DNA of 63,261 nt, the filler included, from Candidatus Woesearchaeota archaeon (GTDB lineage Archaea > Nanobdellota > Nanobdellia > Woesearchaeales > B72-G16): assembly GCA_003650545.1 (NCBI GenBank). It is 3 parts of 3 records of this genome, joined end to end, with 100 filler letters (N's around TTAATTAATTAA, not from the genome) between each part and the next. Parts side by side here need not be neighbours in the genome. Positions count along the whole stretch, not along the records: positions 27,727 to 53,313 come from QMQO01000018.1; 2 more parts are not named here. The stretch is one strand, 5' to 3'. The notes beneath the pieces are model-generated. The model searched no databases. It had not been told where the DNA came from and saw nothing but the letters and a program-made list of their open reading frames with translations. Every line of letters starts with the position of its first letter. Positions within the stretch are counted from its first letter, which is position 1. Position numbers and translations under genes: made by a program. Shown piece by piece: positions 27,727-62,377 of this stretch.

Positions 27727-27789
27727 AAATAAAAACATAATTAAAAAAATAAATAATGTTAATTAAAATAAGATAACATTATCAAAAAA

Positions 27790-28293
27790 ATGAAGATACT
27801 TGGAGTTATAGAGATACTTTCCAGAGACCTTTCTAAAGGTTTAACTATAAACCAGATCTCTAAGTTGTTGCATAAGAGTTATGCTGCAACTAACATGCTG
27901 GTTAGAGGGATGATTTCTGATGAGATTCTGAATAAACTGATTGTTGGCAATGCTATTCTTTGTACACTAAACCTTAGAAATGAATTGACAAGGGCTCTAC
28001 TGGCTGTTGCTAGTGTGAAGAAGAAGCAGACAGATTCAAGCTGGAAAAAAAAGATTGACATTGAGTTGATCGATGAGCTAAAAAGGCGTTTTACTATAGA
28101 ATGTGTCTTTCTGCAAGATGATAAACTAAACATTGTGTGCAGGAATGTTCTGGCGCTACAGGAGTTTTTGAATGAGCGCAAGATAAGAGCTGCTGTTTTT
28201 GAGGCTGCAGATTTTCATGTTAAAAAAGATCTAAGCAGAAGCTATGTTATTTATGGTTTTGAAAGGTTTTGGGAGCTGATTGCAAATGCGTAA
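27790..28293 (+). CDS. Winged-HTH protein with degenerate nucleotidyltransferase-like C-terminus
   Basis: LTINQISKLLHKSYAAT HTH; C-terminal VIYGFERFWELI; stop overlaps the next gene's start. Confidence 0.6.
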   Translation: MKILGVIEILSRDLSKGLTINQISKLLHKSYAATNMLVRGMISDEILNKLIVGNAILCTLNLRNELTRALLAVASVKKKQTDSSWKKKIDIELIDELKRRFTIECVFLQDDKLNIVCRNVLALQEFLNERKIRAAVFEAADFHVKKDLSRSYVIYGFERFWELIANA

Positions 28294-29266
28294 AGGACAG
28301 GTTAGTTTATGGATCATTACAGGCATCATCATTTTGATACTTGTGATTATTGGCGTTGTACTTGTTATAACTACAAAAAGGGCAGAGATTGTGCCAGAGC
28401 TTGACATCCTGCCGATCAGGGCTTATGTTGAGGGCTGTGTTGATGATGCTGCGTTAACAGGAATATTTACAATCGGAAAACAGGGCGGATATATCTTTCC
28501 TAAAGGCGATTATGTTTTTGTTGAGTTTGATTTCGTTAGTGTGGGCTTTAACATAGACGAGAATGTTTTGGTTAGCGAAAAAGAGATGGAGCAAGAGCTT
28601 GCTAACTACATCAAGATTGTGTTGCCTGATTGTGTTGGAAAGGTTAGACAGAGATTCGTTGATTACGGGTTTGAGTTTGGCGATGTTGATGTGGATGTTG
28701 ATATCACAGATGCAGATGTGCATGTGGATGTTTTGTACCAAGTAAGTGTTAGGAAAGGCAATGCTGCTGCAAAAATTGAGAGGTTTGTCAATGTGTACGA
28801 CATCAGACTTGGACATGCAAGAAATATCGCTGACAAGATCATAGATAGTATAAAAGCAGATCCTGATTGGATTGATGTAACTACCTTGGGAGAATATGAT
28901 ATGAAGGTTAATCTTGTGCCGCAGGATCTGGCCACAATCATTTATGTTTTGAGCGAGCCCAGCAGATATGGCGATACTTTTGTGTTTGCTTTTGGTGCAA
29001 GGTACAAAATTAATCATGACCCTGTGCTAGAGTTACCAGACACACTTGAACTGAAGAGGGGCGAGCGTTTTGTGTACCAGGTTGTTGCAACTGATGATGA
29101 CGGTGACAGGTTAACTTTCTCTGATGATGATGGGATGTTTGACATTACAGATGACGGGTTGATTGACTTTGTTCCTTATTTTGAAGGCAGATATGATGTT
29201 AAGATCACTGTTGTTGATGAACATCGCGGGTATGATGAAAAAGAGGTTAGGTTTGTAATAACATGA
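28286..29266 (+). CDS. Type IV pilin-like protein (class III signal peptide) with C-terminal Ig/cadherin-like domain
   Basis: [23 protein letters not shown]-terminal NHDPVL...[12 protein letters not shown]...[14 protein letters not shown] overlap with the giant gene. Confidence 0.78.
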
Positions 29267-32200
29267 ACTGGAGAAAATTCCTAGGAATAGTGATGATTTA
29301 TCTAACCATAACTCTGATGATTCCTGGGACTGTTTTTGTGTTTGCTCAAAGCGAAGAAGAAAAACAGACAATTTGTGATTTTGAGGCTGAGCTTGATAAG
29401 AAAGCAGTAGAATCGTGCTTAGAGAAGCTTGAGGAAAAATCTGTTGAAGATTTATCTAAAATTGTTAAGGAGTACCCTGACTTTTTTGTTAATAACCCAG
29501 AGTTGTTAACAGGGCTAAAAGTTGATATTAGTAATATAAAAGGAATTGATGAAGTTATTAAGAGAATCACTAAACTGCGTGTTGGGCTAGAATTTAAAGA
29601 AAACTCAGATTGTAGGTTAGAGCAAACTTTTAAGCTAACCTGCCAAAAGAGGAGTGTAGAGCTTACCAGTGTGTCTGAGAGATATGCAGAATATGTAGAA
29701 AAAATAATGACAGATCCTGAAAAAGGAATAATTATTGTGTTTAAAAATAAAAATCAGATGTATTTAAAAGATGGAGGCAGGATTTCTTTTGATGTAAATG
29801 GAAATGTAGAGGTTGGTCAGGGTATAATGCTGGTGGTTGATGAGCTTATCACTATTACCCCAAAAACAGAGATAAAAATTCTTACATCTGATGGATATTT
29901 AAAAATATCAGGAGCTGTCAGAATCGAATCAGATATGTTTGAGGGAAATGTAAATGAAGAGTTTTACTTCAGTGGCACTAAAGAGGGTTATGATCTTGTT
30001 GTTAAGGAATCTACAGGTGATTTTGCTGTAAATGATGGGTTTGGAGAGAACAAATTCAATGGAGATTATTTTGAGGTTAGTGTTAAAAAAGAAAAGATAG
30101 CTAGGTTTGTTATTGGAGAAAACACGATAGCTGTTGTCAAGAAAGAAGATAAATCATCATTCCCTGAGATAAGCGATTGTGAGGAAAAGATTGATGATAA
30201 GGTGCGTTGTGTGTATGTGTTACAGGATAGGGCATCAGGAGATGCTCTATTGATGAGGCAGGAAACTGTTGCGCTTAATGTTCTAACTAAACAACTTAAT
30301 GGGATTGATGAGTTAGAGGATGTTAATGCGATCATACAACATATAGATGAGATTCTTGGGCTTTTTGAAAAAGATAAAATAGAAGATCTAGTTATATTAG
30401 AATATATCCAGAATCTTGAAGATCTAAGGAAGAAAGCCAAAATATTTTCAAACTGGAAAAAAGATGAATCAGTGATGCAGTTTTTAAAAGAAAGCTTGTC
30501 AAAAGAGGCTATAGAGAGGTATAAGAGCATAGCTAAGAGCCTCAAAGAAGATGCAGACAATAACAATCAAATAAATTACTTGTTTAGGGATACTGGGAAT
30601 TTTCTCTTGTTTGGAAGATCAAAGATTACATACGAAGATGGCAGTTATATTACAGGTGAAAAATCTGATGTTATAAGGGCAGATGTTTTTGAGGCTGGAA
30701 AACATGTTCTAATGTGTGAAGGTTTTACAGATGGTGATGCTTGTGTTGGAAGAATCAGGCCTTATATATTGGATGAAAAGTGTACTGAAAACAATTGTTT
30801 AACGCCAGTTGAAGATGAAAATTTTGTAGAAATCAAAGTAACCAAAGAAGAGTGTACAGATGGAGTTTGTAATAGCCAAATAAAGTTAGGTAGGAATTCT
30901 GTTTTAAGGCTTTTTGACAATGAAAAATTCAAGGAGAAACTTGTTGCGTTTGATCAAACTGTTACAAGTGTTTTTGCTCTTGCTGCATCATCTAAAGAAT
31001 CCAGGATTAATTACTTTAGCATGGATGGCGATACATTGATTGCTGCTAAACAGTTACCTGACTATGAACTAAAAAATGAGATTGAGATAAATGATAAAGG
31101 TTTTAAGGAAAAAATAGAAGAGATTAAAAAATATAGAAAGCGTTTTGTTGCTTTATATGAAATTATCAGTTCTATAATTAAAGATGAAGATAAAGAAAAA
31201 TTAGAAAATTTAAAAAAAGAGTATGAGAAAAGCTTGATAGAGACTGGTGTTAAATCAGATGTTGAAAAAGATATTCGGGAATTCGCCAGTAAAACATCAA
31301 AAAAAGTTGGTGTGAACATAAACCTTATAAAAGCTCAGGTTGCTTTGAGTGTTGGGGATGTTGACAGAGCAATTAGATTATCAAAAAAAGTTATTCAGGG
31401 TGATGATGAGGCTCAGAAAATTAATGCTTATATGTTTTTGTTGCAGATGCATGCTATGAAGGGTGAGATTCCTGAAGATTTTAAGAAGGAAGCTTTTGGG
31501 TTCTTTGGGTTAAAAGATGAAAATGATGATACGATTATAGATGAGTTGGTAGATGTTCTGGGCATTCTGGGCATAGATAAAACAAAAGGTAGAACAGAAG
31601 CCCAAGATATTTTAGAAAAGCAGCAGATTTCAGAAGAGATCTCTGAAAAAATCGGTGGATTGGAAGAGGATAAAAGGAAGGAAAAAATTGAGCAGATTCA
31701 GGATATATTTGCTAAGTACTCATTTCTGGAAAATTACCTGGATCTGAAAAACAGGCTGGATGAGCAGAAAGATTTTGGTGATGAGTTGGAGAAATTTAAA
31801 GGACACAATGTAAATTATTTTGAGAGGTATAAGAATCGGTACAAAGATAACCCTAGAATATACGAAAGATTTTTGATGATAGGAGCGAATAAATATGGAG
31901 AATTGGCTGCAAAAGAAACTAATGAGACGAAAAGAAAAGAATATCTAGAAAAACAACTTGCATTCTTAGAAGAGGCAGCTGATGTCAGGGATAGAAACAT
32001 TGTGAAGAATGAGTTTGATCTAAGAAGAGCTGGATATTCTGAGATAGATTTCATCACTAACTTCTATAACGGGGTTTTGCAGAGGAGCAACATCAATCTT
32101 ATGCTAGAAAACTATGAAGTTGCAAGAAACCTTGCAAAAACTGCGTTTGGGTTGAATGATCACTGCTATAGCTGCCTATCAATAATGTATCACGCAGATA

Positions 32201-35200
32201 GCGTGTTACATGAGCAAGCAAAGGAGGAAGAAAAAGAAAAATATGCTCAAAAGCTGGAGGATACAATAACAAAAATAAAAACAGCTGCTGAGGATATTCT
32301 GGAAAAAGTAAATGAGATGAAAGAAGGCGAGAAGCTTAGTCCTGACGAGATTAGCATGTTATACTTATATCAAGCAACACTAAAGATTGAAGAAGGGATA
32401 TCTGAAGAAAAGTTAATAGAAAAGAAGATAGAACTGATAAACATTATAATAAATAGGGTAGAAGACAAGGATAAAAACAGATATTCTTTAGAATTACATT
32501 TTCTTGAAGCAGATAAAGCTGTTCTGGAAAATAAAGTTGAGGAAATAAGTAATGCTATTGAACAGTTAAAAAAGGATATTAAGGATTGTCCAGATAATAA
32601 TTGTAAAACAAAAGTCGCTCTAAAAATTGGTGAACTCGGGCTTAGTCTTGAGTCAGATGAAAAGCTGGAAAATACTGTTAAGTTTTTAATTACGAATAAA
32701 AAAGATCTATGCAAAGATGAAGAATGTAAAGGTGCTTTCAATAGTCTTATTCTATCTGCGGGAAGAGCTAGGATTGTATTATTAGCTCAAGACGAAAATT
32801 TTAATGAAGCTAATAACATAATCGAAGAGCTTAAAAACGAAGATATAGGAGTTGGTGAGCTCGAAAAGATGATAAATCGTCTGGAAAAGATTGCATCTCT
32901 ATCTTTTGATAATGCTCTTTCAATAATTGGAGAGGCTAAGACTGAACTCGAGAGGCTAGAGTCTGGCACACAAGAGTACTATAATAAGGGACAAGAGATC
33001 AATCTTATGTATAACATTGCTTTTAAAAAGCTTATAGAGAGTGTTCCTACAGATGTTACAACAGGAGGCAGAACATATAATCAGGATGTTATAACTGAGC
33101 TTAAAGACTTAGAGAGAAGTATCCAGGATTTGCCAGAAAATGTTAAGGATGCCTTTAAAACTGGGGTGTTTAATCTAATAATGCAATATCTATTTGCAGA
33201 AGAAGTTCCAGGGATTTCTCAAGCATATCGCATAGAGACAGCGTACCAGTTGCTGCAAAGTTTTCCTGAGCTAAAGGATAAAGAAATAGAAAATAAACGG
33301 CTTGGATCCTATGTGTGGAAACTTAGGGAAACTAGCTATCCTATCCAAAGGCTTAGTTATGGAGTAGATCTTTTGGAACAAGGAGACTTGGATAAGGGGA
33401 GAGAAGTTTTTCTGGAAGCATTAAAATCTGCAGAAAAGGTTGGCATCGTAGACCAAAATTTTCTTAACTATGTTCAGAGTGTAGCATTTAATCCTAAATA
33501 TCTTGTGATAAAACCTGAAGAAGGAGAGAGTGATCCTGTCTATAAATTTTTAGAAACACATAATGTAGATGTAGAAGATAAACTGAAGAACTACATAACA
33601 CAGACAAAATTCTACCAAGCGTGGTCAGATAAATCTTCTGATCTCCAAAGCATAGTGACTGATGTTGTAGAGAGGGAGATGGAAGAAGGGACTAGCAGAG
33701 ATATCTTAGCAGTGATGCCTGATCCTGATGATCCTGACAAGAATATACAAATTCCTTTGTATGTTGTGGAAGATGAAAAAGATAAAGGAAAATGGAAGAT
33801 TATAGAGAAAAGATCTGGCAACACAATAATAACTATTGACAAAAATACAAACCTTGAACAAGCGATTAGTGATTATTATAAACAAGATGGGGATATCAAA
33901 GCGAAACAGGTTAGCCTGTTTGTTAAACGGGAAAGAAATTCTCCTGAAGAAACCAAAGCTATAAACTCAAGAGTGACACAAATAGATAACTATTTTGATA
34001 ACTTAGGAGGGGAATTAAAAGGGTTATTTATGAGAGTGCAATTAAGGGGCGACATTGACAAGCTTGAAAATCTAGTCAGGATTGGAAAATATGATGAAGC
34101 AGAAAGTCTGTTTAAAAAAATTGAAGAAGCTAATGTTGAAGCAGGAGGTAATCTATTTTACAATGCAGGAATTGAGTATTTATACATAAATCCTATAAAT
34201 CCTGATGAGGCTAAGGAAGAAATCGAAAAAATCTCTAAAAAGGAAATAGAGGCATCGTGGGCTGCGTTCTCTGGTAATCCTGAACTTATGGACGAGATCA
34301 TAGAAGATTCAATCGAATGGAATAAGAAACAGATTAGAGATGCAGCAAATTTAATCTCAGAAAAAGATAATATCGATGATGTGAAAGAAAAAATTCGACA
34401 AGTGCTTAGTGGCTTAAATACTGTTGTCCAGACTGGACTTGCAACAGGGAGTTATGGTATAACAGATCTTAATAAGTTTAGGCTAGAGGCAATGCCTAAA
34501 AAAGATGAAAGCAAAAAAATACAAACCCTCAAAAAAAGTATTGTTACTTATCTTGATGATGTGATTGATGTAGAAATTGAAATAAATAAGATGAAGAGAG
34601 AGCAATCAAAAAGAGGTGTTTGTGTGCAGGGAGTCTGCACTTTTGATGGTAAAGAGAATGTGCCTGAATCTGTTGTTAGAGTGAGGCTATTATCAGACGC
34701 GATTGAGGAAAACCATGAACTGGCAAGGGATATTTCACTTGAAGAGATGAGGAGAAAAACATTTGGAGAAAGAATATCTGGGTTTATTGGCGATCTCGAA
34801 GATCTTGTAGGGTTTAGTCCATCACCAGCAGGGGATTTTATACTTTCTAGGCTTGGTAGAAGAGATCCATATGAAAAGGCAGTGCATGAGCCTGTTCAAC
34901 AATTAGAATTAAGTGTTGTAGGGCAGCAGATTGATAGGATTTTGCCAATTCTGAGTGATGAGCAGCTAGATGCTGCCTGTGATTTGTTTCAGTCTAAATT
35001 GCTTCAGTATAAGCGTGGTGAATGGGATGAGGACATTGCTTTTGATGCTGAAATGTTCAGAATGACCAGTGCTTTCAGCAACGAGAGGATTGCTAGAAAC
35101 AGGGCAAGAGATAAAGAAATGCTAGACGAATATGCTGAAAGCCAAAATATTAATCTAGATGAGTTGTCAGATGAGCTAAAAAAAGAGCTAGAAAAAGAGT

Positions 35201-38200
35201 ACTGGCAAACGCCAGAATTTAGAAGTTTTTCAGACCTTACCCAAGCAGAGCGTTATCGAAGCTGGATTTCTAGGATACAAGTGCCAGAAGAAGAATGGAG
35301 CCATTCTCAGATGGTTCTTTCTGCAAATAAAGATTTTATGATAGCAAGCCAAAAACTTGAAGAGCAATCTGTGGATGGTAGTGTTGCAAACACTCTAGCC
35401 AAAGATGAATTAGCGAACACAGTAAAATACCTTACAATAAAATTAGAATCACAGATAAATGAACATAAAAATAAGAATATAGAATATAACAGAGGTTTTG
35501 AATGGCTATCGTATATAGAGCCATGGCGTTATGTTGGTGCTTCTAATCTAAATGATTTATGGGTTACTCTTGGATTCGGTGATAGGGACAAGGTTGAGGC
35601 TTATAATAATGCCGAAGAAACCAAAAAAAATATTGAAGATTCCATTGAGAACTATCGTAATAACCCAACTGAGGACAACTATAACAAACTAACTGATGAA
35701 TTAGATAGCTTAGATAAATTAGAAAAAGCTGCAGATTATGCTTATCACCAGGATCATGGCTTTATAGCAGAGACACTTAATACAGAGAACGTTGTTAAAA
35801 CTGCAGCTGCATTAGTTTTTGCAGAGGTTGCGCCTGCGTTGATTGGGTTGAGGGCTGCAGAGGTGGGCGAAGCTGTTGAGACTGGCATAAAAGCAAAACA
35901 GATTGCAAGCAAAACCAGATTAGCAGTTAGAATGGCTGAGGCTGCCAGAAAGGGATTTACCACAGGTATTTTATTTGAGACTGCAATGGAATTTGCAGAT
36001 GGAAACTTCTTTACTGTGGAAGGAGCGCTTGGTGCTCCAGAAAGAATGTTGACTGGCGCACTTATGTTTGCAACAGGTGGTGCTGCTGAAGTAGGGATTA
36101 GCCCTCTTACAAACATACTTAGATATAGAAGCGAAGCTGCTGCACGGAGGTATCTTACTGAGACAGGAGCTAAAAGATTGCAATCTGCTATAGCTGCGAG
36201 AGCATGGAATACTGGTGCCTCAGCAATTAATTTTGGGGCGATGACAGCCGGATTTGCTGAGGTTAGTGCTCTGCAAAAGGGAATGCTTTATCCTGATCCA
36301 AAAACATTGGGAGAGACAGCTGTGACACTTGGTCTGTATAAGGTGGTTGGTACAGGCGTTGGTAAAGTCTTAGAGCCTGTAGAACGGTTGAGGATTATAA
36401 AAAACCTTGAAATCAGATCAAAAAAATACGATGAAAAGATAGGGGAATTTAACCAGAAAGCACAAGATATACTGAATGGAGTTAAGGATGACACAACAAG
36501 AACAAAGATAGAAAATATTTTTCAAAAAGAGATTTCTTACAGAGAAAAAGCTGAAGAATTGTACAAGATAGAAACTGAAAATCGTGAACTGAAGACACAG
36601 ATTGAACAAATGGCTGATTTTCTTCGTCAGGCTTCTGGTGCTAGATTAACCAGAGATTATCTAAATTATGAGATCGAGATGCGCAAACATGAACAGAATG
36701 TGAATGAAAACAATATAAAATCAGAAAAGTACTTTGACCAGATTGAGAAAGTTATTAAGGCAAAAGAGACACTACTGGAAACAGAATATGAGGAAGGAAT
36801 TATTAATGATCAGGGATATGACATTGGAAAAAAAGAGATCGAACTGGAAAAAAAGCTTTCAAATAGGAAAAAACTGTATCTAAATCTTAAAGAAGCTAAT
36901 GAAGAACTAGGTGAGCTTGAAGCTCGAGGTAAAATAGAAAATTCTGAAAAAAAACTAAAAGAGAACTTTGAGCTAATAACAGACATTGAAGAAAGTGATT
37001 CAAGAATCCGCTCTCTCAGGGAAGAACTTAAAAAGAATAGAGCCGGGGAGGTTGAGGCTAAGATAAGAACACAGACAGAGGCAAACATCCTTACAAAAAT
37101 GGTTGAACTGAAAGAAGCATTATTCAAGAAAGATCTGCTAGAGCAAAAGATTAACACTGAAAAGCAAAGACTAATCCTAGAGAAGATGCAAGAGGGTCTT
37201 AGTTTTGCTAAAGCCAAAGCTGATGTCGAGGCTGTATTCCAAGAAAAGCTAACTGAGTTTGAAAAAGGAGAAGTTAAAAGTAAACATGGATATGAAGAAC
37301 TGATAAGACTGATAATAGAAAAAGGTACACTAGAAAAGGATATTCCTAGTATAGAAACAGAGTTGAATGAGTTAAGTTATCAACAGATTCAGGAAGTAGA
37401 AGAAGCAAAAAAAGAAGCAAAGAGAATTGCTAGGGAAATTCGTAGGTTTAAAAAAATTGAAAATAGAATTAAGAATAAGAATATTAAACCTAATGTTAAA
37501 AATATAATTGATCTTTTAGAGAACAACAGACTTCCAACTGACCTAGAAGAACTCAAGAACACTGTACTGGAAAATTTAAACAGAGAAGAACTAAAATTCT
37601 TAAATGCACGTATTGAAGAAGCTGAGAAGATTACTGGGTTAACAGCAACAGAAGAACAGGCTGCAACAGCAATAATGAATAGTCTAACCAAAAATAGTTT
37701 AATAATATCTGTGCCGACAGGCAGAGGTAAAAATGTTTTCATCACACCAGAAATGGTGTTGACTGAGTTGCGTGCAGGAAGAAAAACCCTGATAATTGAA
37801 CCTGATGATAACCTAAAAAGAGCTACATATAATTATCTTGTTGAAAAGCTCAAAGGAAAAGTCAGAAGCATAGTTCAACCAGAGATTGACATGCGCACAT
37901 TAGATGACAGGATTGCTGCAGATATTCAGAATGCAGATGTTGTTGTGATAACTTTAGAAGAATACATTAATATCAAAGGTGCAGAGAGAGCATTAATTGG
38001 CAAGGAAAATGAACTTGCAACGGGAATCATGAATGATTTTGGAGAAAGATTTAACATATTTGATGAAGCACATGAAATTGCAAATGCTAATCCTCTTATC
38101 TGGGTGAGGGCAGAAAAACCACTAAAAAGTATAGAAGGTGGCAGAGAAAAAATATTCGCTAACAAAATCTTGTTTGAAGTTCTTAAAGAAGTAGGCAACA

Positions 38201-41200: not shown

Positions 41201-44200
41201 ATTTATTTAAAGATGTTAAGGGTGCTGTTTTTGAGGTAGAAGCGGATGACGATGACAGGAATGTGTTTACTATTGGGTTTAAAGGGACTGATAAAACTGG
41301 AGAGGTCAAGGCTAAAGCAAAGATAACACTCCAAAAAATACAAGGAGCAACAGAAGATCTACAGACCATGACTCTAGAAATTCTTGAGCTGCCTGCTGAA
41401 TCAAAACATAAACAGAGTTTCTATGATTCAATTGAGAATTATGCTCATTACAAAGGAATTGAACAGATTGATATAGTAATCAAGCCAAACTTGGTTGCAA
41501 GACTACTACCTGGATCTGATTTTCGGTTCTTGCGTAGAAATGGTTTCATTGTTCACAAAGAAGATTTTACAAAAACTGGGTTATGGGAGATAAGTATGAT
41601 AAAGCCTCTGACACAAGAAAGGCTTAATGACTTACTGAAGTTTATCAGTGCTAAGCAGGATATTTTAACAGAGGATAGAGATAAACTAGAGAGTGAACTA
41701 GGACCAAAGTTTGCAAAATACCAAGGTCTAATCGATAGGCTTGCAGATATAAAAACCAGCTCTATTAAAGCAGCTGTTGCAGGGGATCAAGCTAGACATA
41801 CTTTAATAGAATCATTGGTAAAAACTGTTCTTGGTTATGGTATTGTTCAGAACATCATGGTCATGACTAGCTTCTTTAAACAAAAACCGATTAGTCTTCA
41901 GACATCTTTCACTGAGAGGAGTCTGGTTACAGTAACAGAAACAGCACCACAGAAAGTTGAGGCGCTGGCGGAGGGTGCTGGGCGTGCTCGGCGTTTAGTT
42001 ACTAATGTTCCTAGCATTGGCTTTACAACATTTTTCTTGCAGGCGTTTGAAACTTTTGCTATGTTTGAGTTTATAAAAAGATGGCGTTTCGCGATGCCTG
42101 TCAATGAAAAAAACTTTGTTAAAACCAGGATCGTGCCTGTATTAAAGGGAATGGGCGCATATTATGTTAGCACAAAGATACTTCCTGCCTTGACATCAGC
42201 ACTAAACATGGGCGCAGCTATTGCCAACCCAATAATTGGTCTAACATTTGGCTTGACTGCAGGCTATACATACTCTGCTATCTCGCCAAAAGAAGACAAG
42301 ACTGCAAGCTTTGTCTCGTTGGCTACATTTGGCTTGACCACATTAGGAATGATGTTTGTGCCGCAGGTTCCATTGGTTGCATGGGGGGTTAGCTCGATTG
42401 CGATACCTGCTACAATCGCACTTATAAGAGGGTGTAGCAAGATAGCCAAAGATGTGGGAGAGGAGCTCTGGAGTTTTAATGTTGGTGATTTCATATTCAG
42501 GTCAGCATCAGCAGCAACAGCATACTATTTTGCAAGGATGGCTGCTGGGGCTGCAACAGAAGGAATGTTAAACACTGGTTTTCTTATCCCTGCTGGTGTT
42601 GCGGTTACAGCTGGTCTAGCTGCTGTCGGCAGCTTTGTCAGTATCAGAGGTGTAAATCAAATCACTGCTGGAGTGATCGACAGCTTTAGGAATGTCCTGA
42701 GAACCGTGAGGAAGCTAAGAACTGACCAGAGAGCACGGTTTTATGCATTAACAAGGGTAGCTGCTGCAGGAGCTGTTTGGTATGGTTTAACGCATTTTGG
42801 GGCATTGACTGGCATGATCGGAGCAGCAACACTTCCTGTTGCACCGTTTGTTGTAGGTGCAGGGATCGCTGGCTTTGGTATATATAGCTTGTTTGGTTAT
42901 AAACCATTTGTAAGAGCACTCTCTACAGAAGCTGCAGATATTGGGATAAAATTAACTATTAGATCTGCACTAGCAGGTGGTATGCTAAGTTTGGCTTACA
43001 GAACTGGACTTTTCACTGGCATAGGAAGCATACCCCTTTATCTACTTATAACAGGGGTGCATGTCAGCTCGTACATTGCTGGAAATAAAATAATCGAGAC
43101 TCTTAGAGGTTTGGTGTTCAAGGATATTTCAACAGAATTACTTGATAAGATTAAGGAGGATGCTGCAAGAGAAAATATAAATGTAGATTCATACAGGGTT
43201 AAGCATGTTGGACCTGAAACACATATCATCTTTACCTACAATACAGAGAATGTGTTTGGCATGGTGATCAACACTCAGACGCATGGCCTAACGGTTTCTT
43301 CTTATAAGGAGGATGTTAAAAAAGAAGATGAAGATGTAAGCAGAATTGTAACTGAGAATATTAATAGTATTCTGGATGAGGATTTGGATAAGATACTGAA
43401 ATTTGAAAAGCAACTTGAAGATCTTAACAATAAAATAAAGATGACTAAAAAAACAACAAGACAATTGAAAAGACTGGAAAAAAGAGGGAACCTAAGAGGG
43501 GTAGAGACGCCTTTGCTGAATAGGGTTAGAGCAGACATTAAAAGTCTATATGAAAAAACAAGAAAAATGGTTAAAGTTCCTATATCTAAAGTGAGGATAG
43601 AAGAAGTAGTAAAGAAAGGAGTAAAAATAATAAATATTGAACTTCAAAAAATAAGCCCTATATTGTCCAAAATTAGTGTTGGGATGCCTCAGCTTGGAAG
43701 AACTACTGGCATAACAATAGCTATAGGTGTTGGTGTTGGTGGTTTCACCTTAATCGCAGCTGCGCCCTTTGCAGGTGTTGTTGCTGTTCCACTTGGGATG
43801 ATTGTTGGAGGTATAGGCGTAGTTAGTTATACACTAATCAATGTTATGAGAGAGATAACATTTGAAACACCGCTAACACGAGAATTACCAAAAATAGATG
43901 ACAGAGCTGAAGTGTTGAGGGCAGCTTCTGAAAGAAGAATAAAAACTATTACCTCACCTGTAGATAAAAGAACAGTTGTGATTGGAGATATCCATGCTTC
44001 GTTAGATGCTTTGAAAGAAAGCCTTATTGCTGCAGGCTTGATTGATACTGAGGATAATTGGATTGGAGGCGATAATCGCTTTATACAGACAGGAGATGTT
44101 ATTGATCGTGGCCCTGACTCTATTGAGTGTTATGATTTCCTAAGGGAGCTACAACAAAAAGCAGAGAGTGCTGGCGGAGAAGTTGTGAGACTGCTTGGAA

Positions 44201-47200
44201 ATCATGAGTTGTTATTATTGCAGAATGTTGATAATAGATTTGCAACAGAGTCAATTTCTGACAAAGAGCAAAGAGAAGAATTAAGAAGCAAAATAATAGA
44301 GGATATAAAATCAGGAGATGTAAAGGCAGCTTATTATGTTGCAGGTCACATGGTGTTGCATGGTGGTTATGTGCCGGATGCTTTCCCGGAATTTAAAGAT
44401 AATAGTCCTGAACAAATTGTAGATCAGCTTAATGAAAGACTTGTTGAAGCTATAAATACTGAGGATTATGAAAATGATCAAATATTTAAAGCTGGCGTAT
44501 CTAGAGAGGGGGAGGGGTTGCCTGGCATATTCTGGGCTGATTATTATAAAGATCTAGTTTATTTCGATCTAGCACTAAATAAAGCTGATCTTCCTGACCA
44601 AATAGTTGGTCATACTCCGACAAGAAAAAGTACTCCGACAGAAAGGAGAAAAATTGTTACCTCAGATTTTAAAAAAATTATTGATATTGATGTTGGACAT
44701 GCTGAATATTATGGTGGTTACAGAGCCCAATTAATCATAAAAGAAAATGAAATTTTTGCTAAAGAACCAACTGAAGATGAGATTAAAAATTTTAGAGATA
44801 AAGCAAGCCATCTAAAGCGTAATGGAATCATCTATGGAGTCTTTAATCCTGTAACAGGTAGAATCGTTATTAACATTGATGCTACAAGGGAAGCTTTTAA
44901 AGACGAACTTAGAGGAAAAGCCCTAGATAAAGTGCAAGCGTTCGTCTTTTCACATGAGATACTGCATGCAATACTGGCTAGAGCAAAGATAACTCTGTCT
45001 GAAAGGCGTGAAGAGGCACTTGCAGATGCCTTTGCAAGAGCCATGATTAATGCTGAAAAGCCTGACGATGTCGAATCGATTAACAGGTTTATCAAGAGGT
45101 TTAATCTTAAGCAGAGAAATCCAAGAATAGCTGACCTGCTTGATGTTGCAAAACAAAGAACAGACTATCCGGGTTTCTTTCTCAACCTTGAGTTGGCTGG
45201 AATCACACCTTACAATGTCGAAGTCCGTGGCATAGAAGATATAATCTTCGAGGAGGTTATTAGTAGAGAGGTTGAGCAGGCTGCAGTTTCGATTCTTAAA
45301 CTAGAAGAGCCAACACCGGGTATCATAGAAAAGATAAGAAATGAACTTAATATTGCACAAGGAGAGGCAATTGAAAAAGCAAGAGCTGCACTAAAAAGAA
45401 GTAAATCTGCACAAAAGCGTTACGAAGAACTGAAAGGCATAGCAGAAGCTAAACAGAGATTATATAGTGTTATAGACAGAATATACAGAGACACGCCTGC
45501 TTATGCAGCAAATAATGTGTTAGCAAGAAATAATTATTATACTGAGCGTGGTGTTAGAGAAGGTGAACTGACAACAGTTGAGTTTGCTTTGAACATCAAA
45601 CACCTTAATAGCGAAATTGGTCCAGAGGCAACAGACTCTGTGCTGAATGCTGTTTCATTTGCCATAGATAATATTGTAAAGGAAAGTACAGAAGCAGATA
45701 GTCTCAGAAGTAATACAGGTACAAAAGTGTTGAGGAATGACGCTAAGAATATCGAGACAATCATAACCAAGATTGCAAGCGGAGAGTTTGTGATAGAGAA
45801 CTTCGACGGTGAGGCCGAGATCCAGGACGCTATTAATAGGCTTAGGGATAAAGATGTTGTTATTGAGGAGATCGTGAATGTTCTGGATAGCAGAGGTTTT
45901 AAAACAACTAAAACCGAGTTAAACAAGGCTGTAAAAGAAAAGGGTTATAGTGATATAAGATCTTTCCTTGACAGTAACTTTCAGGCTTATATGGGTTTTG
46001 CTAGAACAAAGTATGTTGGAATGGATAGTGCACAAAGAAATTATCTAAACGCTTTCAGGGATGGCAAATTTGTTCAACTTTCACTGATTGCAGAAATTGA
46101 GGAAGGTAAAGATGTAAGTCAGAGGGACGCAACAATTGTTGATTTGATCCAAAGAAAGAAAGCTGTTAGGGGTAGGTTTAAATCTGGTGTTTATTACAAT
46201 GACAAGGATTATGCTGGAAAAATAAAGGATGTTGTGCGATACCTCAGAAAGAGCAATGATGTTGTAAAGGAAGAGTTTAAAACTTATAGAGGGATGCTAA
46301 AGAAGAGCAGAGAAAATGTTAAGAATGTTAAAACACTGAATGATCTGATCAGAAGCTATATCTTATCAGATAAACAAGTGAGGCCTCTGGTGGATGCTAT
46401 TGCCAGAGACAGGATCGTAAAAAGGATAGCGATACATGACAGAGATGTTAGCTATCTCACATCTAGGCAGATCTGGAATTTAAGGTTGCACCAAGAGATG
46501 CAAAGAGTTTCTGAGACTGGCAGGATAATCATTGGTTCATTAGACATAAATAATCTTGGTGTTCTTAACTCAATTAACCCTGATTATGCAGATGATATGA
46601 AGAGTTTCTTGATAGAACTATTACAAAAAAGGTTTGGCTATCAAAATGTTGTGGTGACGGCTGGTGATGAGATTTCCTACCTAACCACAGGAATGACTGA
46701 AGAAGAGTTTAGAAAGATAGAGAATGATATTATAGAAAGGTATAGCGCATACGCTAAAGAGCAAGGTTACAGGATAGATGCAGACGAGGTTATAGAAGAT
46801 AAGTTAGTCAAAATAAGGGATGCAATACCCACCATTAGCTCATCATACATTGTGATAAATGGTAGAGATGTTCTTATAGGTTTAGCAAAAGAGGGTTATA
46901 AACCCTTCTTGTTTATCAATAATGCGCTTGATAGAACAGTCACAAATGTTAAGAGTGAGGGTAAGATCGCATTAAGCAGAGGAAGAACACCAACATGGTC
47001 TAGAGCTATCACACCGGCTGATGTCGGCGCTACAGCTGAGATGGTTAAGGCTAAGGGTGTGTTTGTTGAAAGACCAACACAGACATACTACCTTGATATT
47101 ATAGAAAGCATTGCAGACAAAAGGGACTCAAGATTTGAGGCTTACATGAAGAAAATTGATTCCGAGGAGATGGAAAACAGCATAAGCCAAATAAAAGCGA

Positions 47201-50200
47201 TGCGGGCATTGCTTAACTACATCCCTGAAAATAAATTAAAACCTGTTGAGCTGATGATAGAAGAGAAAAATGTTGCAGAAAATATTCAAGCTAGGCTAAA
47301 AGAAAACGGTTTTACATTGAAGGACAAAACTGTTGAGATACTCAAAAGCTTTAATCCTGAAGCTAGAAAAACTCTAGATAGTGGCGCGATTGTAAGAGCT
47401 GCAATTGATCTGTTTAATGACAAGACTTTTGTTGATTATACAGCAGCAGGGGCACGGTATACAATAGATGAAACCGTTTTGATGCTTGCGGCTTTAAGCT
47501 ATTCTGGTGTTGTAGAGCAAAAGGTTGCTGAGCATAACGAGGAAATAATCCCTGTCGGGCCATATAATGTTTTTGTTAATATAAAACAGCTTGTAGATAA
47601 ATATGGTGGAGATTATGTGAGGGTGTTTAAGCATTCAGACGGAAGCACAAGCATTATCACCATGGATGGGAAGGGGCACGGATTATATGCTTCATACATG
47701 AAAGCGCTGACCGCAGCTTTACTGCCAGTAGACAAAATGGTTACATTTAATGATATTGTGATGGCTGATGAGCATCTTAATGTTGAAGAAAAAGGAGTAT
47801 TTTTCGCAGCAGTCAGTATTCTGAATGTTGATAAAGACGGGACACTTTACGGCTTTGGAGGTTCTGGTTACTCTTACCATGTTACTAAGGATGGTCAAGT
47901 TATACAGTTGAAGAGCAGGTTCTTACCGCTGGGAATAGGTGCTGTTGATACTGCTGGAATAGATAAGGCTAGCATTGGTGATAAGATAGAGATCAAGGAA
48001 GGCGATAGAGTAACCATGTTCACAGATGGTGTGTTTGAGTTCAACAGGAAAAAAATCGTTTATGCCGGCAAGATATTCAATATGGAGATAGATTATTATC
48101 TCCAGCTATTGCAAGATAACATAGCCGAGCCATCAACAACTTACATAGATGTTGGTACCAGAGATATAGCGAACATTGGCGCAAGAGATGATTATCTATT
48201 TGTTGTTGTTGAGATGGCTGATTTTGGTGGAAGGTTGGCTGCTTTTATAGGCGAGAGAGGAGTATCGCTAACAGATACACAAAAAAGAAGAATCGCTGCT
48301 GTGAAAGAACAACTGATAGCATTGGGAGTCTCGGAATCGTTTGTTGTGCATGAACAGGAAAGAGTGTTTGACAGCATAAGAAGAATAAGGCCAAATGAAA
48401 AGGTTGTTAATAAGATTGAAGAGGCTGAGAGCATAACAAGGGATTTTGAAGCTGTATTTGGAAAACTGATAGAGATATTAGGTTTAAGGGTAACAGATCT
48501 CACCAGAGAAATCACAGACAAGTACGAGCAGGTAGTAATTGAAGAATATAAAGTAAGAGACATAGGCGGTTACTATAAAAGAATAAGGGACGAACTAAAT
48601 AAAAGATATGGTGTTGATAATGTGGAAGCAAGCCCTGAGTATAAGATTAAGTTATATAACGAGTTATCAAGATTGAGGAATCTTGTGAGAAACAAAATCA
48701 CTAGAGAGATTGTCGAAAGGGAGCGGAGAAAGGGCTTTACTTATGATAGTATTAGGGCTAACTTGAAAAATGTAGCAACGAAGCTGAGGCAGGAGCTTGA
48801 TGACAGGCTTTCAGCCAATATTGTTTATCCTGGAACCAGGGTTCCATTAGAGTATCTGGCTAATGATGTTTTGATTGATTCTGTCATCGATGCATTACAG
48901 GCTGAAGAAGCTGCAAAAATGGTTGAGGTTGCTGCTGAAGGGGTTGTTGCTGAAGGCGAGATTCTTGTCAAGAGACCTGCAGAACAACCAACACATCCAG
49001 ATACTAGGGCTACCGCAGTAGCTGTAATAAATAATCTTGGCCTTGGAACAAAAGATCCATTGGCTGCAGAGATAAGAGCAACAATTAATAAAGAGTTAAA
49101 TGCTGGAACAATAGGCGCTGCCTTAATAAGAGCAATCGAAAGGACGATAAGAGAGAGTGGTAGAGATGATGTTAATATTTTAGTTGATAGATTAAACAAC
49201 CCCTCGTTCTTCAGATATTTTATTAACAGACTAACTCCAGTGACTGTTGGTTTTATTGGTAGCAATGTTTTTGTTGATTTAATAGTTAAGATCAGGGACT
49301 GGAGAAAATCTAGAAAAGTGTTGCAGATCAGCTATGACCAGATTAGGGAATTATTAATGGAAAATATACAGAAGGTTGTTGATGTTGGGGAACCAGCTGT
49401 AGAACCATTAATAAAAGCGTTGAAGGATGAAAACATAGAGGTTAGAAAAAGAGCAGCAACAGCACTTGGATATATTGGAAGTGAGAGAGCTATAGAACCA
49501 TTGATAGAAGTAGCGTTGAAGGATGAAAACTGGGGGGTTAGATGGGAAGCAGCAAATGCACTTAGATATACTGGAAGTGAGAGAGCTGTAGAACTGTTGA
49601 TTAAAGCATTAGAAGATGAAAACTGGGAGATTAGAGAAAGTGCAGCAACAGCACTTGGATCGATTAAAAGTGAGAGAGCTGTAGAACCATTGATAGAAGT
49701 AGCATTGAAGGATGAAAACCGATATGTTAGAGAAGAAGCAGCAACAGCACTTGGATCGATTAAAAGTGAGAGAGCTGTAGAACCATTGATAGAAGTAGCA
49801 TTGAAGGATGAAAACTGGGAAGTTAGATGGGAAGCAGCAAATGCACTTAGATATACTGGAAGTGAGAGAGCTGTAGAACTGTTGATTAAAGCATTAGAAG
49901 ATGAAAACATAGGGGTTAGAGAAAGTGCAGCAACAGCACTTGGATATATTGGAAATGAGAGGGCTGTAGAACCATTAATAAAAGCGTTGAAGGATGAAAA
50001 CTGGGAGATTAGAGAAAGTGCAGCAACAGCACTTGGATCGATTAAAAGTGAGAGAGCTATAGAGCCATTAATTGAAGCGTTGAAGGATGAAAATGCAGGT
50101 GTTAGAATAGAAGCAGCAAGAGCGCTTGGATCGATTGGAACTGAAAAAACTGTAGAATTGCTGATAAAAGCGTTGAAAAATGAAAATAAAGATATTAGAA

Positions 50201-53200
50201 TAGGAGCAGCAGAAGCGCTTGGAATGATTGAAAGTAAAAAAACTATAGAACCATTAATAAATGCGTTGAAGGATGAAGATGCAGATGTTAGAATAAAAGC
50301 AGCAGAAGCGCTTGGATCGATTAAAAGTGAAAGAGCTATAGAGCAATTGATAAAAGCGTTGAAAAATGAAAATAAAGATATTAGAATAGGAGCAGCAATA
50401 GCGCTTGGATCGATTAAAAGTGAAAAAGCTATAGAGCCATTAATTGAAGCGTTGAAGGATGAAAATGCAGGTGTTAGAATAAGAGCAGCAACAGCACTTG
50501 GATGGATTAAAAGTGAAAGAGCTATAGAGCCATTAATTGAAGCGTTGAAGGATGAAGATGCAAGTGTTAGAATAAGAGCAGCAGCAGCGCTTGGATCGAT
50601 TAAAAGTGAAAGAGCTATAGAGCAATTGATAAAAGCGTTGAAAAATGAAAATAAAGATATTAGAATAAGAGCAGCAGAAGCGCTTGGATCGATTAAAAGT
50701 GAAAAAGCTATAGAGCCATTAATTGAAGCGTTGAAGGATGAAGATGCGGGTGTTAGAGAAGAAGCAGCAGAAGCGCTTGGATCGATTAAAAGTGAAAAAG
50801 CTATAGAGCCATTAATTGAAGCATTGAAGGATGAAGATGCAGGTGTTAGAATAGAAGTGGCAAAAGCGCTTGGATCGATTAAAAGTGAAAAAGCTATAGA
50901 GCCATTAATTGAAGCGTTGAAGGATGAAAATGCAGGTGTTAGAATAAAAGCAGCAAAAGCGCTTGGATCGATTAGAAGTGAAAAAGCTATAAAGCCATTA
51001 ATTGAAGCGTTGAAGGATGAAGATGCGGGTGTTAGAGAAGAAGCAGCAGCAGCGCTTGGATGGATTGGAAGAGTTAAACCTCTGATAAAAGCGTTGAAAA
51101 ATAAAAATAAAGATATTAGAATAGGAGCAGCAAGAGCGCTTGGATCGATTAGAAGTGAGAGAGCTATAGAACCATTGATAGAAGTAGCATTGAAGGATAA
51201 AAACTGGGAGGTTAGAAAAGGAGCAGCAGCAGCACTTGGATATATTGGAAGTGAGAGAGCTGTAGAACCATTGATAGAAGTAGCATTGAAGGATGAAAAC
51301 ATAGGGGTTAGAGAAAGTGCAGCAGCAGCACTTGGATCGATTAAAAGTGAGAGAGCTGTAGAACTGTTGATTAAAGCATTAGAAGATGAAAAAATAGGGG
51401 TTAGAGCAAGTGCAGCAACAGCACTTGGATATATTGGAAATGAGAGAGCTATAGAACCATTGATAGAAGTAGCATTGAAGGATGAAAACCGATATGTTAG
51501 AAATAGAGCAGCAGATGCATTAACAGTTATTAAACAAGGAGATATCGAACGAATTAGAGCCTTGATTCCACAATATCTACAAGTATATTACACCACAGAA
51601 GAATTTCGTATTGCTTCTCAAATTTTAAGGTATGGAGAACTGACTGGTTCTGAGGTGTTCAAACGCTTGGGCGTGTCATTCAAAAATGTAGAAGGAGGAG
51701 CTAAGTTTGAAGATCTTGATTTTGTGTTAAAAATAATCAAACTCTCTGAAAATCCTTACTTAAAAACTATTTTAAAAGATATTCCTGAGTATCAGCATTA
51801 TTCAATTATTCAAAGCATTGTCAGAAGAATTAGGCAATTAGAAGGAGAGGGAGCTAGGGTTGATGTAAGAGAGGTTATAGACTATATTATACAGGGTAGA
51901 AAAAATATAGCAAATATTGAGTTGGCAAGTAAAAATACTAATGCAGTGATCATAACGCATGATGAAAAGTGGTATGGCATAGATCGTTTTGATAACAATG
52001 AAATCAAAAGATTCTTGATAAAGGCTGGAGTGATCGAAGCTAAAATTGAAAACTTTAAGGGTGTAAAGGATAAAACATCTGCACTAGATGCGATCAGGTC
52101 TATTGATACTCCAACATTCATCTATCTAAGCGGTCATGGCGGACCTCACCACTTCTGGCTGACTAGCGGAAGATTAGGCGAGGAGTACAGCGATGATCTA
52201 AAGCGAGATGATGCAATAAGTTATACTGAATTAGCAGAGGCATTGATGTCAATCCAAGAACAAGGTTATGAAATCAAAAATGTTCGGATGGTTATTGACA
52301 GCTGTTATAGTTATGATTTTGCATCAATGGTTTATAAAGAACTTAGGTCCAGAGGAGCCAGATCTTTCCCTATTATCATAACATCAACAAACAGGGAACA
52401 GGTTGGTTATAGCATATCGCCTGAAGAGAAAGCAAAGTTTGGGATAAGTAGTTCTCAACTAATGTATGGTCTTGTTAATGCCAGAAGATTTAAAAAAGGA
52501 CCACTGATTATTGATGATGCGTTTAGATCTTTAGAATCAAATGTAATCGAGAATATTGGTGTGCTTGTTCCCCGTGAGTTATTCGAAGAAAAACCTGTAG
52601 AGAGAATTGTGCTAACAACTCTGGGAAGTACTCAAGACGATTATCTGCCTGTTACAGACGAGTATTTAAGAGAGATCGCAAAAAGCGAAAAAGGAAAGAT
52701 CCCAACCCCTATGCTATCAGAGGTTATAGATGCTGGATTCACTGGCGCTTCTAAATACGAAGGAATGGACTGGGGAAAGGTGTATAATGCTTACAACAGA
52801 ATGTCTGGCAGCTTTAGCAAGTTGTCACATGAAGATCTAATAGGTGTGATTGGAGTCGGAAGATTCTTTGATGTTAAGATTAAAATTGAGTATGATTCTG
52901 ATGTGAATGAAGCTGATTATGATCCTAACACAAAAACTATCTACATCAAGACTACTAGCAGAGAGATGAATGATTTTGTTGAGCTGGCAACTGTGCATGA
53001 ACTTGCAGAGGCTGCTTATAGGTTGTACAATGTGGAAGATAAGTCTGCTATAAACGCGCATGGATTTGCATTGATGATGGAACATGCATATACAGGAATG
53101 ACAAGAGAGCAGAAAATACCAGTATGGCAAGCTAGAGAGAGAACAGAAAAAGGAGAGGTAGTAGATGTCTTTGTGAGAGAGCCTGAGAACATACAGTTTA

Positions 53201-53232
53201 GTAAGAGAGTCAAACAGATGGTTGAAATTTAG
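29263..53232 (+). CDS. Giant 7989-aa multidomain membrane protein with SecA-like ATPase and an array of enzymatic cargo domains
   Basis: Uninterrupted 24-kb ORF. Signal peptide; Cys-pair/TPR-like region; G/A-rich helices (~35790-36370); SecA-like motifs PTGRGK, DEAH, TATP, QELGRR (37711-39567); multi-TM block (~41820-43840); metallophosphoesterase GDIH/GDVIDRG/GNHE; HEILH; GGDEF-like (AGDE); PP2C (DGKGHG, FTDG, RDD); 23 HEAT repeats; caspase-like SGHG...DSC; terminal HELAE. Confidence 0.92.
49396..51530 (+). repeat. HEAT/PBS-lyase repeat array, 23 units mostly of 93/96 bp
   Basis: A(I/V)EPLI(E/K)(V)ALKDE(N/D)xxVRxxAAxALGxIxSE(R/K); units near identical at DNA level. Confidence 0.93.
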
Positions 53233-53233
53233 G

Positions 53234-53261
53234 TTTTTTCTTTTTTTCCCTCTTTTTTTTT
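53234..53261 (+). terminator. Oligo-T archaeal-type terminator
   Basis: ttttttctttttttccctcttttttttt directly after the giant's stop codon. Confidence 0.55.
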
Positions 53262-53313
53262 AAGTATTTAAATAAGTAATTTAATTTTAAAAATAATTAA
53301 ATTAAATATATAC

Positions 53314-62340: not shown

Positions 62341-62377
62341 ATAAAAAAGCCGCGCTACCTCTCTCGGTAACCCGGCT
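62341..62377 (-). terminator. Intrinsic terminator (riboswitch expression platform)
   Basis: agccgggttacc-gagaga-ggtagcgcggct followed by a U-tract on the minus strand; the 5' arm is the aptamer's 3' strand. Confidence 0.8.

Follow-up and report, generated by a model that had tools for sequence, protein, structure and literature searches.

The means by which DPANN archaea manipulate their hosts are still debated, and suspicion falls mainly on giant orphan membrane proteins, on which there is almost no mechanistic handle. This question is raised by a stretch of DNA of 63,261 nucleotides (nt), hereafter the window, from the assembly GCA_003650545.1 of a Candidatus Woesearchaeota archaeon. The window joins three contigs, the second of which is nearly all occupied by one giant open reading frame (ORF), at 29263..53232 on the plus strand, whose single frame stays open over 23,970 nt and specifies 7,989 residues with no internal stop. 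A first-pass annotation had recognized this 24-kb ORF and had proposed that a SecA-like motor located within the protein threads a string of C-terminal enzymes across a membrane. Where does such a chain go, and what could drive it? We report here a novel and countable signature, the near absence of N-glycosylation sites and cysteines over 7,989 residues in an organism with surface proteins rich in such sites. It suggests that the whole chain, including its nucleoside triphosphatase (NTPase) and its enzyme array, may be exposed outside the cytoplasm at some stage, while the SecA-likeness of the NTPase is found to be unsupported.

N-glycosylation in archaea is performed by an oligosaccharyltransferase active on the outer membrane face. 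As a topology probe, we counted the sequon N-x-S/T (x being any residue but Pro), which corresponds to the acceptor reported for the archaeal enzyme, Asn-X-Ser/Thr with Pro excluded (PMC8342417). The giant protein contains a single sequon (N887) while 39.7 are expected from its composition (z -6.7), and shuffling within blocks of 100 residues gives 38.2 ± 5.6 sequons, with 22 as the lowest value among 1,000 shuffles. The deficit extends along the entire chain, since the successive thirds have 1, 0 and 0 sequons for 12.1, 12.2 and 13.75 expected (0 of 1,000 shuffles being as low) and residues 2171-7989 have none for about 26 expected. When all 259 a-x-b residue pairs expected at least 8 times are ranked, the strongest depletion is that of NxS and NxT, a count that includes Pro at the central position, two of the three N-x-S/T occurrences that it records having a middle Pro and not being acceptors. 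Control patterns, in which Asn was replaced by Gln, Asp or Lys, or Ser/Thr by Ala or Gly, remain near expectation (z -0.8 to -2.0), and the loss of sequons is therefore not a nucleotide bias. A loss so close to complete argues for selection against glycosylation along the whole chain.

The other proteins examined show no such deficit. Three surface proteins encoded by contig 1 (71..1432, 1442..3199 and 3579..4583, all on the plus strand), with immunoglobulin-like (Ig-like), CarboxypepD_reg and PKD domains, are enriched in sequons (26 for 11.9 expected, 25 for 11.8 and 8 for 3.6, respectively), which suggests that N-glycosylation is active in the archaeon of contig 1. The 14 other ORFs of contig 1 contain 38 sequons for 33.6 expected, a giant ORF of contig 3 contains 25 for 23.1, and 123 ORFs from 80 related loci, found through the ribosomal protein uS7 of contig 1, contain 291 for 263.8. 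Full-text searches of one literature library on sequons, AglB and depletion returned no title or opening of an abstract on sequon-free giant proteins.

Regarding cysteines, the protein has 25, among which 21 are located in residues 31-2170 and only four in the 5,819 residues from 2171 to 7989 (0.069%). With 47 cysteines in 4,370 residues (1.08%) for the 12 non-surface ORFs of contig 1, this latter part is depleted 16-fold. In the presumed ectodomain (residues 31-2170, 29353..35772, plus strand), which is acidic and contains the lone sequon, 20 of the 21 cysteines form ten pairs spaced by 3-14 residues. Five of them are CxxxxC pairs, four of which had been listed in the first-pass annotation, and a number of five is reached by none of 20,000 shuffles. 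In autotransporter passengers, with which the likeness is one of mechanism only, unfolded threading through a narrow channel, once the chain has met an oxidising compartment, is reported to tolerate disulfides solely between closely spaced cysteines (PMC3546941). Of the initial proposal of a cargo moved across a membrane, export is hence supported by the sequon and cysteine purge of the whole chain, whereas the SecA motor is not supported.

Our preferred reading, to which we assign a probability of roughly 45%, is that of a real orphan membrane protein from a Woesearchaeota-type DPANN archaeon, belonging to the known kind of giant membrane-embedded host-interaction proteins that tiny symbionts make, with a P-loop ATPase located behind the membrane anchor, and with the whole chain exposed outside, threadable, and with enzymes acting in a partner cell. 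We infer exposure, threadability and partner-side action because the chain is purged of sequons and of free or long-range cysteines. A Sec-type signal peptide would export the 2,140-residue acidic ectodomain, stapled by its ten short-range cysteine pairs. Behind it come weak Ala/Gly-rich helices and a coiled coil, then a highly divergent NTPase of the DEAH/ResIII-type superfamily 2 (SF2) with a conserved insert. The transmembrane block, of about 12 helices, is followed by two phosphatases, the first of the PPP and the second of the PP2C type, with a zincin-like motif between them, and then by about 23 HEAT repeats and a clan-CD-like protease. At some stage the entire chain, beyond its N-terminal part, would meet the outer membrane face and, kept without glycans and large disulfide loops, it could be passed unfolded towards or into the partner cell. 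The enzyme modules would then act at this destination, possibly once freed by the embedded proteases. The analysis shows the ORF, the order of its domains (largely that of the first-pass annotation), the SF2 assignment, the orphan status and the sequon and cysteine statistics; the topology, the export of the whole chain, its destination and any motor role of the NTPase are inferred from these.

Several observations weigh against this reading. The NTPase requires ATP, PPP and PP2C phosphatases as well as HEAT arrays are usually cytoplasmic, and a simple anchored topology fits these properties. A manual positive-inside reading of the transmembrane block (residues 4186-4862, 41818..43848, plus strand, delineated by hydropathy), with loop charges of +7, +6 and, just before its terminal hairpin, +14, assigns the two flanks, one with the ATPase and the other with the C-terminal array, to the cytoplasmic side. 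The Walker A motif of the NTPase has an Asn that may mean that hydrolysis is absent. No oligosaccharyltransferase gene is present in the window, so that the sequon-rich surface proteins are the one indication of N-glycosylation in this organism. The one relative found, a metagenomic fragment (P0002), has no sequon for 2.45 expected, a deficit without statistical significance (144 of 2,000 shuffles). Contig 2 is tied to the archaeon by binning and composition alone. Finally, the protein is known solely from its sequence, with P0002 as the only homologue found and an AlphaFold2 model of the ATPase with a mean predicted local distance difference test (pLDDT) score of 38.7. As a speculation, the conflict with the cytoplasmic-type domains would dissolve if their final site were the cytoplasm of the partner cell.

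The same topological evidence leads to a possible, if unlikely, alternative, in which the protein would be an anchored surface protein with residues 31-2170 outside and with the ATPase and C-terminal enzymes retained in the cytoplasm for signalling or regulation tied to host contact, a role of the kind proposed for the cytosolic ATPase of the giant proteins of nanohaloarchaea. The block comprises about 10 helices, a 206-residue basic soluble insert and a tight transmembrane hairpin (residues 4815-4862); the hairpin and the positive-inside reading of the loops both place the flanks in the cytoplasm, where the need for ATP and the domain types would be readily accommodated, and the topology published for the giant proteins of nanohaloarchaea has a cytosol-facing ATPase (PMC10266531). 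However, an anchored protein offers no reason for the loss of about 26 sequons or for the 16-fold cysteine depletion in residues 2171-7989, and neither depletion is seen in the cytoplasmic proteins of this archaeon.

Going further than whole-chain exposure, the protein could be an injection device and mega-effector of about 1 MDa made of a single chain, which we consider rather doubtful. In this scheme, the chain would be exported by the Sec channel during translation, would remain threadable for want of N-glycans and disulfide knots, and would pass through its own transmembrane or pore segments into the partner. There, the SF2 NTPase could use the ATP of the partner, possibly helping to pull in the rest of the chain, and the proteases would release phosphatases that rewire the host. 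If so, this would be the first archaeal protein-delivery machine made from one polypeptide, and the sequon and cysteine purge would be a signature for finding more. More generally, if this signature marks chains that cross the extracellular face unmodified, the delivery hypothesis becomes testable and a cheap genome-wide screen for threaded or injected archaeal proteins becomes available.

What the NTPase does is critical for all these schemes. It occupies residues 2791-3480 (37633..39702, plus strand) and, as had been claimed, is an SF2 ATPase; it is divergent and of the DEAD/ResIII type, its first RecA-like lobe being above the curated Pfam cut-offs for DEAD (33.5 bits vs 26, E 4.4e-8) and ResIII (28.7 bits vs 22.5, E 1.5e-6). 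Motifs I, II, III, V and VI of SF2 occur in order, with the Walker A at residues 2818-2824, DEAH at 2934, TATP at 3172 and motif VI at 3430; two of the motif positions given in the first-pass annotation, 37711 and 39550, are exact, while the strings placed at 38062 and 38776 begin two residues earlier, at 38056 and 38770. The Walker A (37714-37734) ends with Lys-Asn in place of the usual Lys-Ser/Thr, and the ATPase activity is therefore not certain; P0002 starts downstream of this motif. No Helicase_C profile matched the second lobe in Pfam hmmscan searches, and neither NCBIfam nor PADLOC gave a match for the ATPase domain. An insert of about 220-230 residues separates DEAH from TATP (residues 2945-3165, 38095..38757, plus strand); it is also present in P0002, where the region is conserved (25% identity over 327 columns). 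In the ESM Atlas, the nearest clusters are DEAD/ResIII/Helicase_C_2 (0.93), Cas3 (0.89) and reverse gyrase (0.88), and the ten best clusters all belong to the same family or clan (DEAD/ResIII).

As SF2 DEAD/ResIII enzymes normally work on nucleic acids and as this one precedes a polytopic transmembrane block, the NTPase could also draw DNA or RNA through the block, in the manner of ComFA in bacterial DNA uptake, and thereby feed a nucleotide-auxotrophic symbiont. ComFA is described as a single-stranded DNA translocase tied to the powering of DNA import (bioRxiv 10.1101/2021.10.29.466550), and DNA handling was proposed by Hamm et al. for the SPEARE giants of nanohaloarchaea (PMC6642349). Yet Pfam scans revealed no nuclease or DNA-binding domain, Pfam and NCBIfam scans revealed no similarity to the ComFA or ComEC families, and nucleic acid import would leave the phosphatase, the protease, the HEAT array and the sequon and cysteine purge unexplained, which makes this function improbable.

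A SecA-like motor threading the C-terminal cargo through the transmembrane block of the protein itself, as initially proposed, appears more improbable still. In SecA, the PPXD is located between motifs II and III. The two proteins are alike in having an SF2-related two-lobed ATPase, with additional residues inserted after motif II and before motif III, and with motifs V and VI far apart. The position of the insert and its conservation in P0002, the transmembrane block downstream of the ATPase and a purge that points to cargo export are all consistent with such a motor, for which there is a bacterial precedent in the divergent SecA_DEAD and SecA_PP_bind domains described for the giants of Omnitrophota. 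However, the ATPase of the giant ORF has no match to the three SecA domains of Pfam, and it has DEAH as motif II and TATP as motif III. Indeed, hmmscan at E<=10 listed DEAD, ResIII and AAA_34 (0.21) and no SecA_DEAD (PF07517) in residues 2760-3480 or in three sub-pieces, and no SecA_PP_bind (PF01043) in residues 2947-3179, it being understood that the HMMER filters may drop matches above about 0.1 in scans at this threshold. Likewise, pieces and tiles spanning residues 3376-4275 contained no SecA_SW (PF07516), and neither a helical scaffold nor a wing domain could be detected. The stretch described as PPXD-like was matched by no profile, and the insert has no detectable likeness to PPXD.

Pairwise comparisons (phmmer --max and blastp) with SF2 proteins of E. 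coli K-12 (SecA, UvrB, RhlE, DinG, HsdR, RecG, RecQ and RapA) gave a similar picture, no comparison with any of them being significant: SecA ranked first for none of the four ATPase query pieces, the top rank going to HsdR, RecQ and DinG for three of them and to UvrB for the insert piece. The PDB sequence search with the ATPase gave no match at E<=1, and the one with the first lobe gave an archaeal DeaD-like chain as top match (E 0.55). A two-sequence profile (A1) was also searched against the PDB, and its one match was judged spurious. AlphaFold2, run on a two-sequence alignment, produced the model with the mean pLDDT of 38.7 mentioned above, with a predicted TM-score (pTM) of 0.26 and 570 of 701 residues below 50; the insert is all-helical in it, at low confidence. 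With this low-confidence model, Foldseek gave no PDB match at E<=0.001, the best having an E of 0.042 and a TM-score of 0.08. Because the structural comparison lacked a usable model, the SecA-likeness of the ATPase is unsupported rather than refuted. The DEAD/ResIII match stands, helicase families are the Atlas neighbours and SecA is never the best E. coli comparator. The analysis also corrects the attractive idea of a SecA in an archaeon, for which no support was found.

Relatives of the protein are extremely scarce. The homologue search that had been suggested in the first-pass annotation yielded, by exhaustive phmmer against 1.84 billion representatives, the giant protein itself and the distant 492-residue fragment P0002 (E 2.3e-4). 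Word-seeded searches returned only the query among 646 giant-length candidates for the ATPase region, none of 7,997 candidates for the ATPase alone among proteins of 396-1,262 residues, and none of 7,999 for residues 31-4880 among shorter proteins. A genome scan with residues 2760-4870 gave 253 pattern matches, none of which was confirmed. In tblastn comparisons with 72,556 records of plasmids and 50,697 of phages, nothing was found for residues 2760-4870 and only generic metallophosphoesterase pieces for residues 4863-6689, and tblastn against the 80 uS7 loci gave no match. The giant protein is hence close to an orphan. Full-text searches of one literature library on SecA and giant proteins in archaea or DPANN retrieved no report of a comparable archaeal protein.

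Such an isolated protein requires that the origin of its contig be considered. Runs of N with stop-codon linkers (27627-27726 and 53314-53413) separate the three contigs of the window, and listed ORF ends falling inside a spacer are artefacts, as for a minus-strand ORF of 2,979 residues with a listed end at 53366, the true sequence of which ends at the contig edge, 53414. Contig 1 encodes a uS7 matching the archaeal/eukaryotic model TIGR01028 at 223.5 bits (cut-off 200), the bacterial model being far below its own cut-off, as well as a type II methionine aminopeptidase, a Rad50-like ATPase and a DUF2070 protein. The S7 search in GTDB species genomes found 302 relatives among 536 candidate stretches; the 80 loci kept, 65-75% identical, are labelled as Woesearchaeota (49), Nanoarchaeota (8), an "archaeon" (4) and co-assembly bins of "uncultured Methanosarcinales" (19). 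Contig 2 (27727..53313, 25,587 nt) is short and has no marker gene; its length equals that given in the protein database for the contig that encodes this protein. It resembles contig 1 in relative synonymous codon usage (RSCU; r 0.94) and in tetranucleotides (r 0.91, the halves of contig 1 agreeing with each other at 0.82), and differs from contig 3 (r 0.65 and 0.57, respectively), which has correlations of 0.53-0.65 with contigs 1 and 2. Because its codon usage and tetranucleotides match contig 1, and from binning, we take contig 2 as belonging to a Woesearchaeota-type genome; the archaeal, DPANN origin claimed for the protein is thus indirectly supported, by the S7 relatives and by this match.

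Features of gene starts were examined by eye. In contig 1, several genes look leaderless (starts at 12667, 13453, 23236, 24412 and 25661 on the plus strand and 19107 on the minus strand), as the 40-nt stretches upstream of them show a TATA-like box some 27-32 nt ahead of the ATG, while internal genes of contigs 1 and 2 are preceded by purine-rich, Shine-Dalgarno-like stretches. A scan for sigma-70 promoters and terminators at the start of contig 2 gave 6 sites for 5.0 expected.

Least credible of all is an artefact or foreign DNA, whether a chimeric misassembly, a bacterial contig or a mis-binned viral or plasmid polyvalent protein: contig 2 is short and devoid of a marker gene, contig 3 looks foreign, a 93-nt repeat present 22.7 times is hard to assemble and polypeptides combining several enzymes, including an SF2 helicase and a zincin, are reported from mobile elements (PMC5512222). 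However, one frame is open over 23,970 nt, the sequon and cysteine purge is even from end to end, composition agrees among the four quarters of the ORF (0.76-0.89) as it does between contigs 1 and 2, the plasmid and phage searches were as empty as stated above, and PADLOC gave only a weak match (HEAT-ARM PDLC02919, E 3.3e-4) and PHROGs chiefly phosphatase families, plus two of unknown function.

How does the giant protein compare with known systems? The concept of giant symbiont membrane proteins with an internal ATPase, acting in self-secretion or effector injection, is already published. In Nanohaloarchaeota, the giant SPEARE proteins of DPANN symbionts (SVXNc_0300 and BNXNv_0298; 6,000-9,400 residues) have a proposed role at the host interface and are described with a plan that is also found in the giant ORF: an ectodomain of huge size behind a Sec signal peptide, then a membrane anchor with a P-loop ATPase behind it, and a coiled coil. 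Their ectodomain is reported to consist of Ig-like and laminin-G repeats, whereas that of the giant ORF is helical, stapled by cysteine pairs and without adhesion-domain match. Moreover, their ATPase is described by Reva et al. as VirB4/TraG-like, with secretion "straws" injecting effectors being proposed (PMC10266531), and the conserved intracellular part by Hamm et al. as type III restriction-like (PMC6642349), in contrast to the SF2 DEAD/ResIII enzyme found here. As far as these descriptions go, SPEARE proteins have neither the polytopic transmembrane block nor the 3,100-residue enzyme array of the giant ORF, and the protein searches revealed no similarity in sequence.

For the giants of Omnitrophota (Archaeovorin and Dockerin types), it has been proposed that the ATPase aids the export of the giant protein itself (bioRxiv 10.1101/2023.11.21.568195; 10.64898/2026.06.07.730766). 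According to these reports, they share with the giant ORF many transmembrane helices, an SF2-like ATPase beside transmembrane segments and embedded peptidases. However, their source, an ultra-small predator or symbiont, is bacterial, unlike the contig of archaeal composition studied here, and their ATPase matches SecA_DEAD and SecA_PP_bind while that of the giant ORF does not. Their cargo is described as mostly glycan-acting and extracellular, with a C39 peptidase near the N-terminus, a layout seen here only in the contig-3 ORF. Multi-effector toxins of the MARTX type, which have self-processing proteases, resemble the giant ORF in how it may work, hydrophobic translocation segments preceding a series of enzymes and a protease of clan CD. 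These toxins and autotransporters, with which there is no sequence relationship, are bacterial; the giant ORF has an NTPase in the chain and is also depleted in N-glycosylation sites.

Candidatus Sukunaarchaeum, a reduced archaeal symbiont, has orphan, helix-rich giants of up to 4,756 residues that are predicted to be membrane proteins (bioRxiv 10.1101/2025.05.02.651781); they are thought to be host-associating, no recognizable enzyme domain is reported in that description, and it is with the description only that the giant ORF was compared. Among the polyvalent proteins of phages and conjugative elements, the giant ORF has no relatives by tblastn beyond the metallophosphoesterase pieces, contig 2 being too short to reveal a mobile-element context. 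It hence shares the general plan of the published giants, departs from each in the features that define their membership, and adds a novel architecture, in which an SF2 NTPase, a polytopic transmembrane block and a phosphatase/protease string are combined with the sequon and cysteine purge.

Regarding the N-terminal half, the signal peptide that had been claimed corresponds to an N-terminus that is signal-peptide-like by hydropathy and charge: within residues 1-30 (29263..29352, plus strand), residues 9-27 are the most hydrophobic segment of the protein (Kyte-Doolittle 2.22), preceded by an N-tail of +2 and followed by an acidic stretch. Pfam scans in tiles over residues 1-2700 gave no adhesion-domain match, and the TPR-like helices proposed for this region have only a sub-threshold match (Pfam, 0.0036). 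The Gly/Ala-rich helices are found as described (residues 2171-2380, 35773..36402, plus strand; 28.6% Ala plus Gly); they are weakly hydrophobic and represent a candidate membrane crossing. The charged region that follows (residues 2381-2790, 36403..37632, plus strand) also agrees with the announced coiled coil, residues 2376-2461 and 2699-2743 being coiled-coil-like by a crude heptad score of our own. Along the whole protein, 8 of 27 Pfam tiles had no match at E<=0.1 and the rest had mostly weak matches below cut-off, while self-BLAST for internal repeats returned the identity row alone and missed even the HEAT array.

Beyond the NTPase, residues 3481-4185 (39703..41817, plus strand) have no Pfam family match. 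The transmembrane block, which the first-pass annotation had rightly placed behind the ATPase, obtained a top score of 0.79 in the ESM Atlas, a low recognition without any lead, and a weak HAS-barrel match at residues 4649-4690 (E 0.0023, below cut-off). Of the "seven or more" enzyme and repeat domains announced downstream, three are above cut-off: a calcineurin-like (PPP-type) metallophosphatase (residues 4903-5059, 43969..44439; Pfam Metallophos, 3.6e-9), a SpoIIE/PP2C-type phosphatase (residues 6126-6317, 47638..48213; 31 bits vs 25) and a HEAT array of the PBS-lyase type (residues ~6708-7429, 49384..51549; HEAT_2, 16 stretches, 2e-263), all on the plus strand. The metallophosphatase has cold-active protein-tyrosine phosphatases of Shewanella as best PDB relatives (7e-14) and a NinI-like match in PHROGs. 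By contrast, an HExxH zincin-like stretch (residues 5218-5284, 44914..45114, plus strand; DUF4344, 2.5e-4) and a stretch resembling Peptidase_C13 of clan CD (residues 7618-7718, 52114..52416, plus strand; E 0.022, with His-Gly and C7681) remain below cut-off. PDB searches with the C-terminus, the PP2C region and residues 5290-6125 gave nothing meaningful. A GGDEF-like palm domain around residues 5800-5960, an idea formed by eye, had no Pfam support at E<=10 and was dropped.

The DNA of the HEAT array corresponds to the 93-nt tandem repeat (22.7 copies, 80% identity). An antisense ORF of 656 residues (49332..51302, minus strand) is located entirely within it and is most likely a shadow frame of this repeat.

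Upstream of the giant ORF, contig 2 has two ORFs in the same direction. The first (27790..28293, plus strand; 167 residues) has no family match, and its ATG has no preceding Shine-Dalgarno-like purine run, while an A/T-rich, TATA-like box is visible by eye about 18-29 nt upstream. The second (28280..29266, plus strand; 328 residues) encodes a protein anchored in the membrane at its N-terminus, with a Big_9 Ig-like domain at its C-terminus. The first overlaps the second by 14 nt, and the stop of the second overlaps the ATG of the giant ORF by 4 nt; the operon-like layout is therefore real. Of the "archaeal operon" that had been described, the operon-like layout thus holds, whereas its archaeal origin comes from composition and not from linkage.

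Contig 3 is probably a foreign, bacterial contig within the bin, because its GC content (0.41-0.45) and oligonucleotide pattern differ. Its giant ORF (53414..62305, minus strand; more than 2,960 residues) runs off the contig and has a signal-like N-terminus and a Peptidase_C39 domain (residues 349-465). A full-length c-di-GMP-I riboswitch (62363-62458, minus strand; RF01051, 60 bits vs a gathering cut-off of 35) sits 58 nt upstream of it, and this layout, with C39 near the N-terminus and a c-di-GMP riboswitch, is one reported for Omnitrophota giant genes. The starts of the two giant ORFs (29263-29320, and 62305-62250 on the minus strand) are alike by eye, with Met, Asn-Trp-Arg, a basic residue and a hydrophobic run, which may be chance among signal peptides. 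Finally, a 97-nt tRNA of contig 1 (16631-16727, plus strand), matched by Rfam at 46 bits and missed by ARAGORN, is possibly an intron-containing archaeal tRNA.

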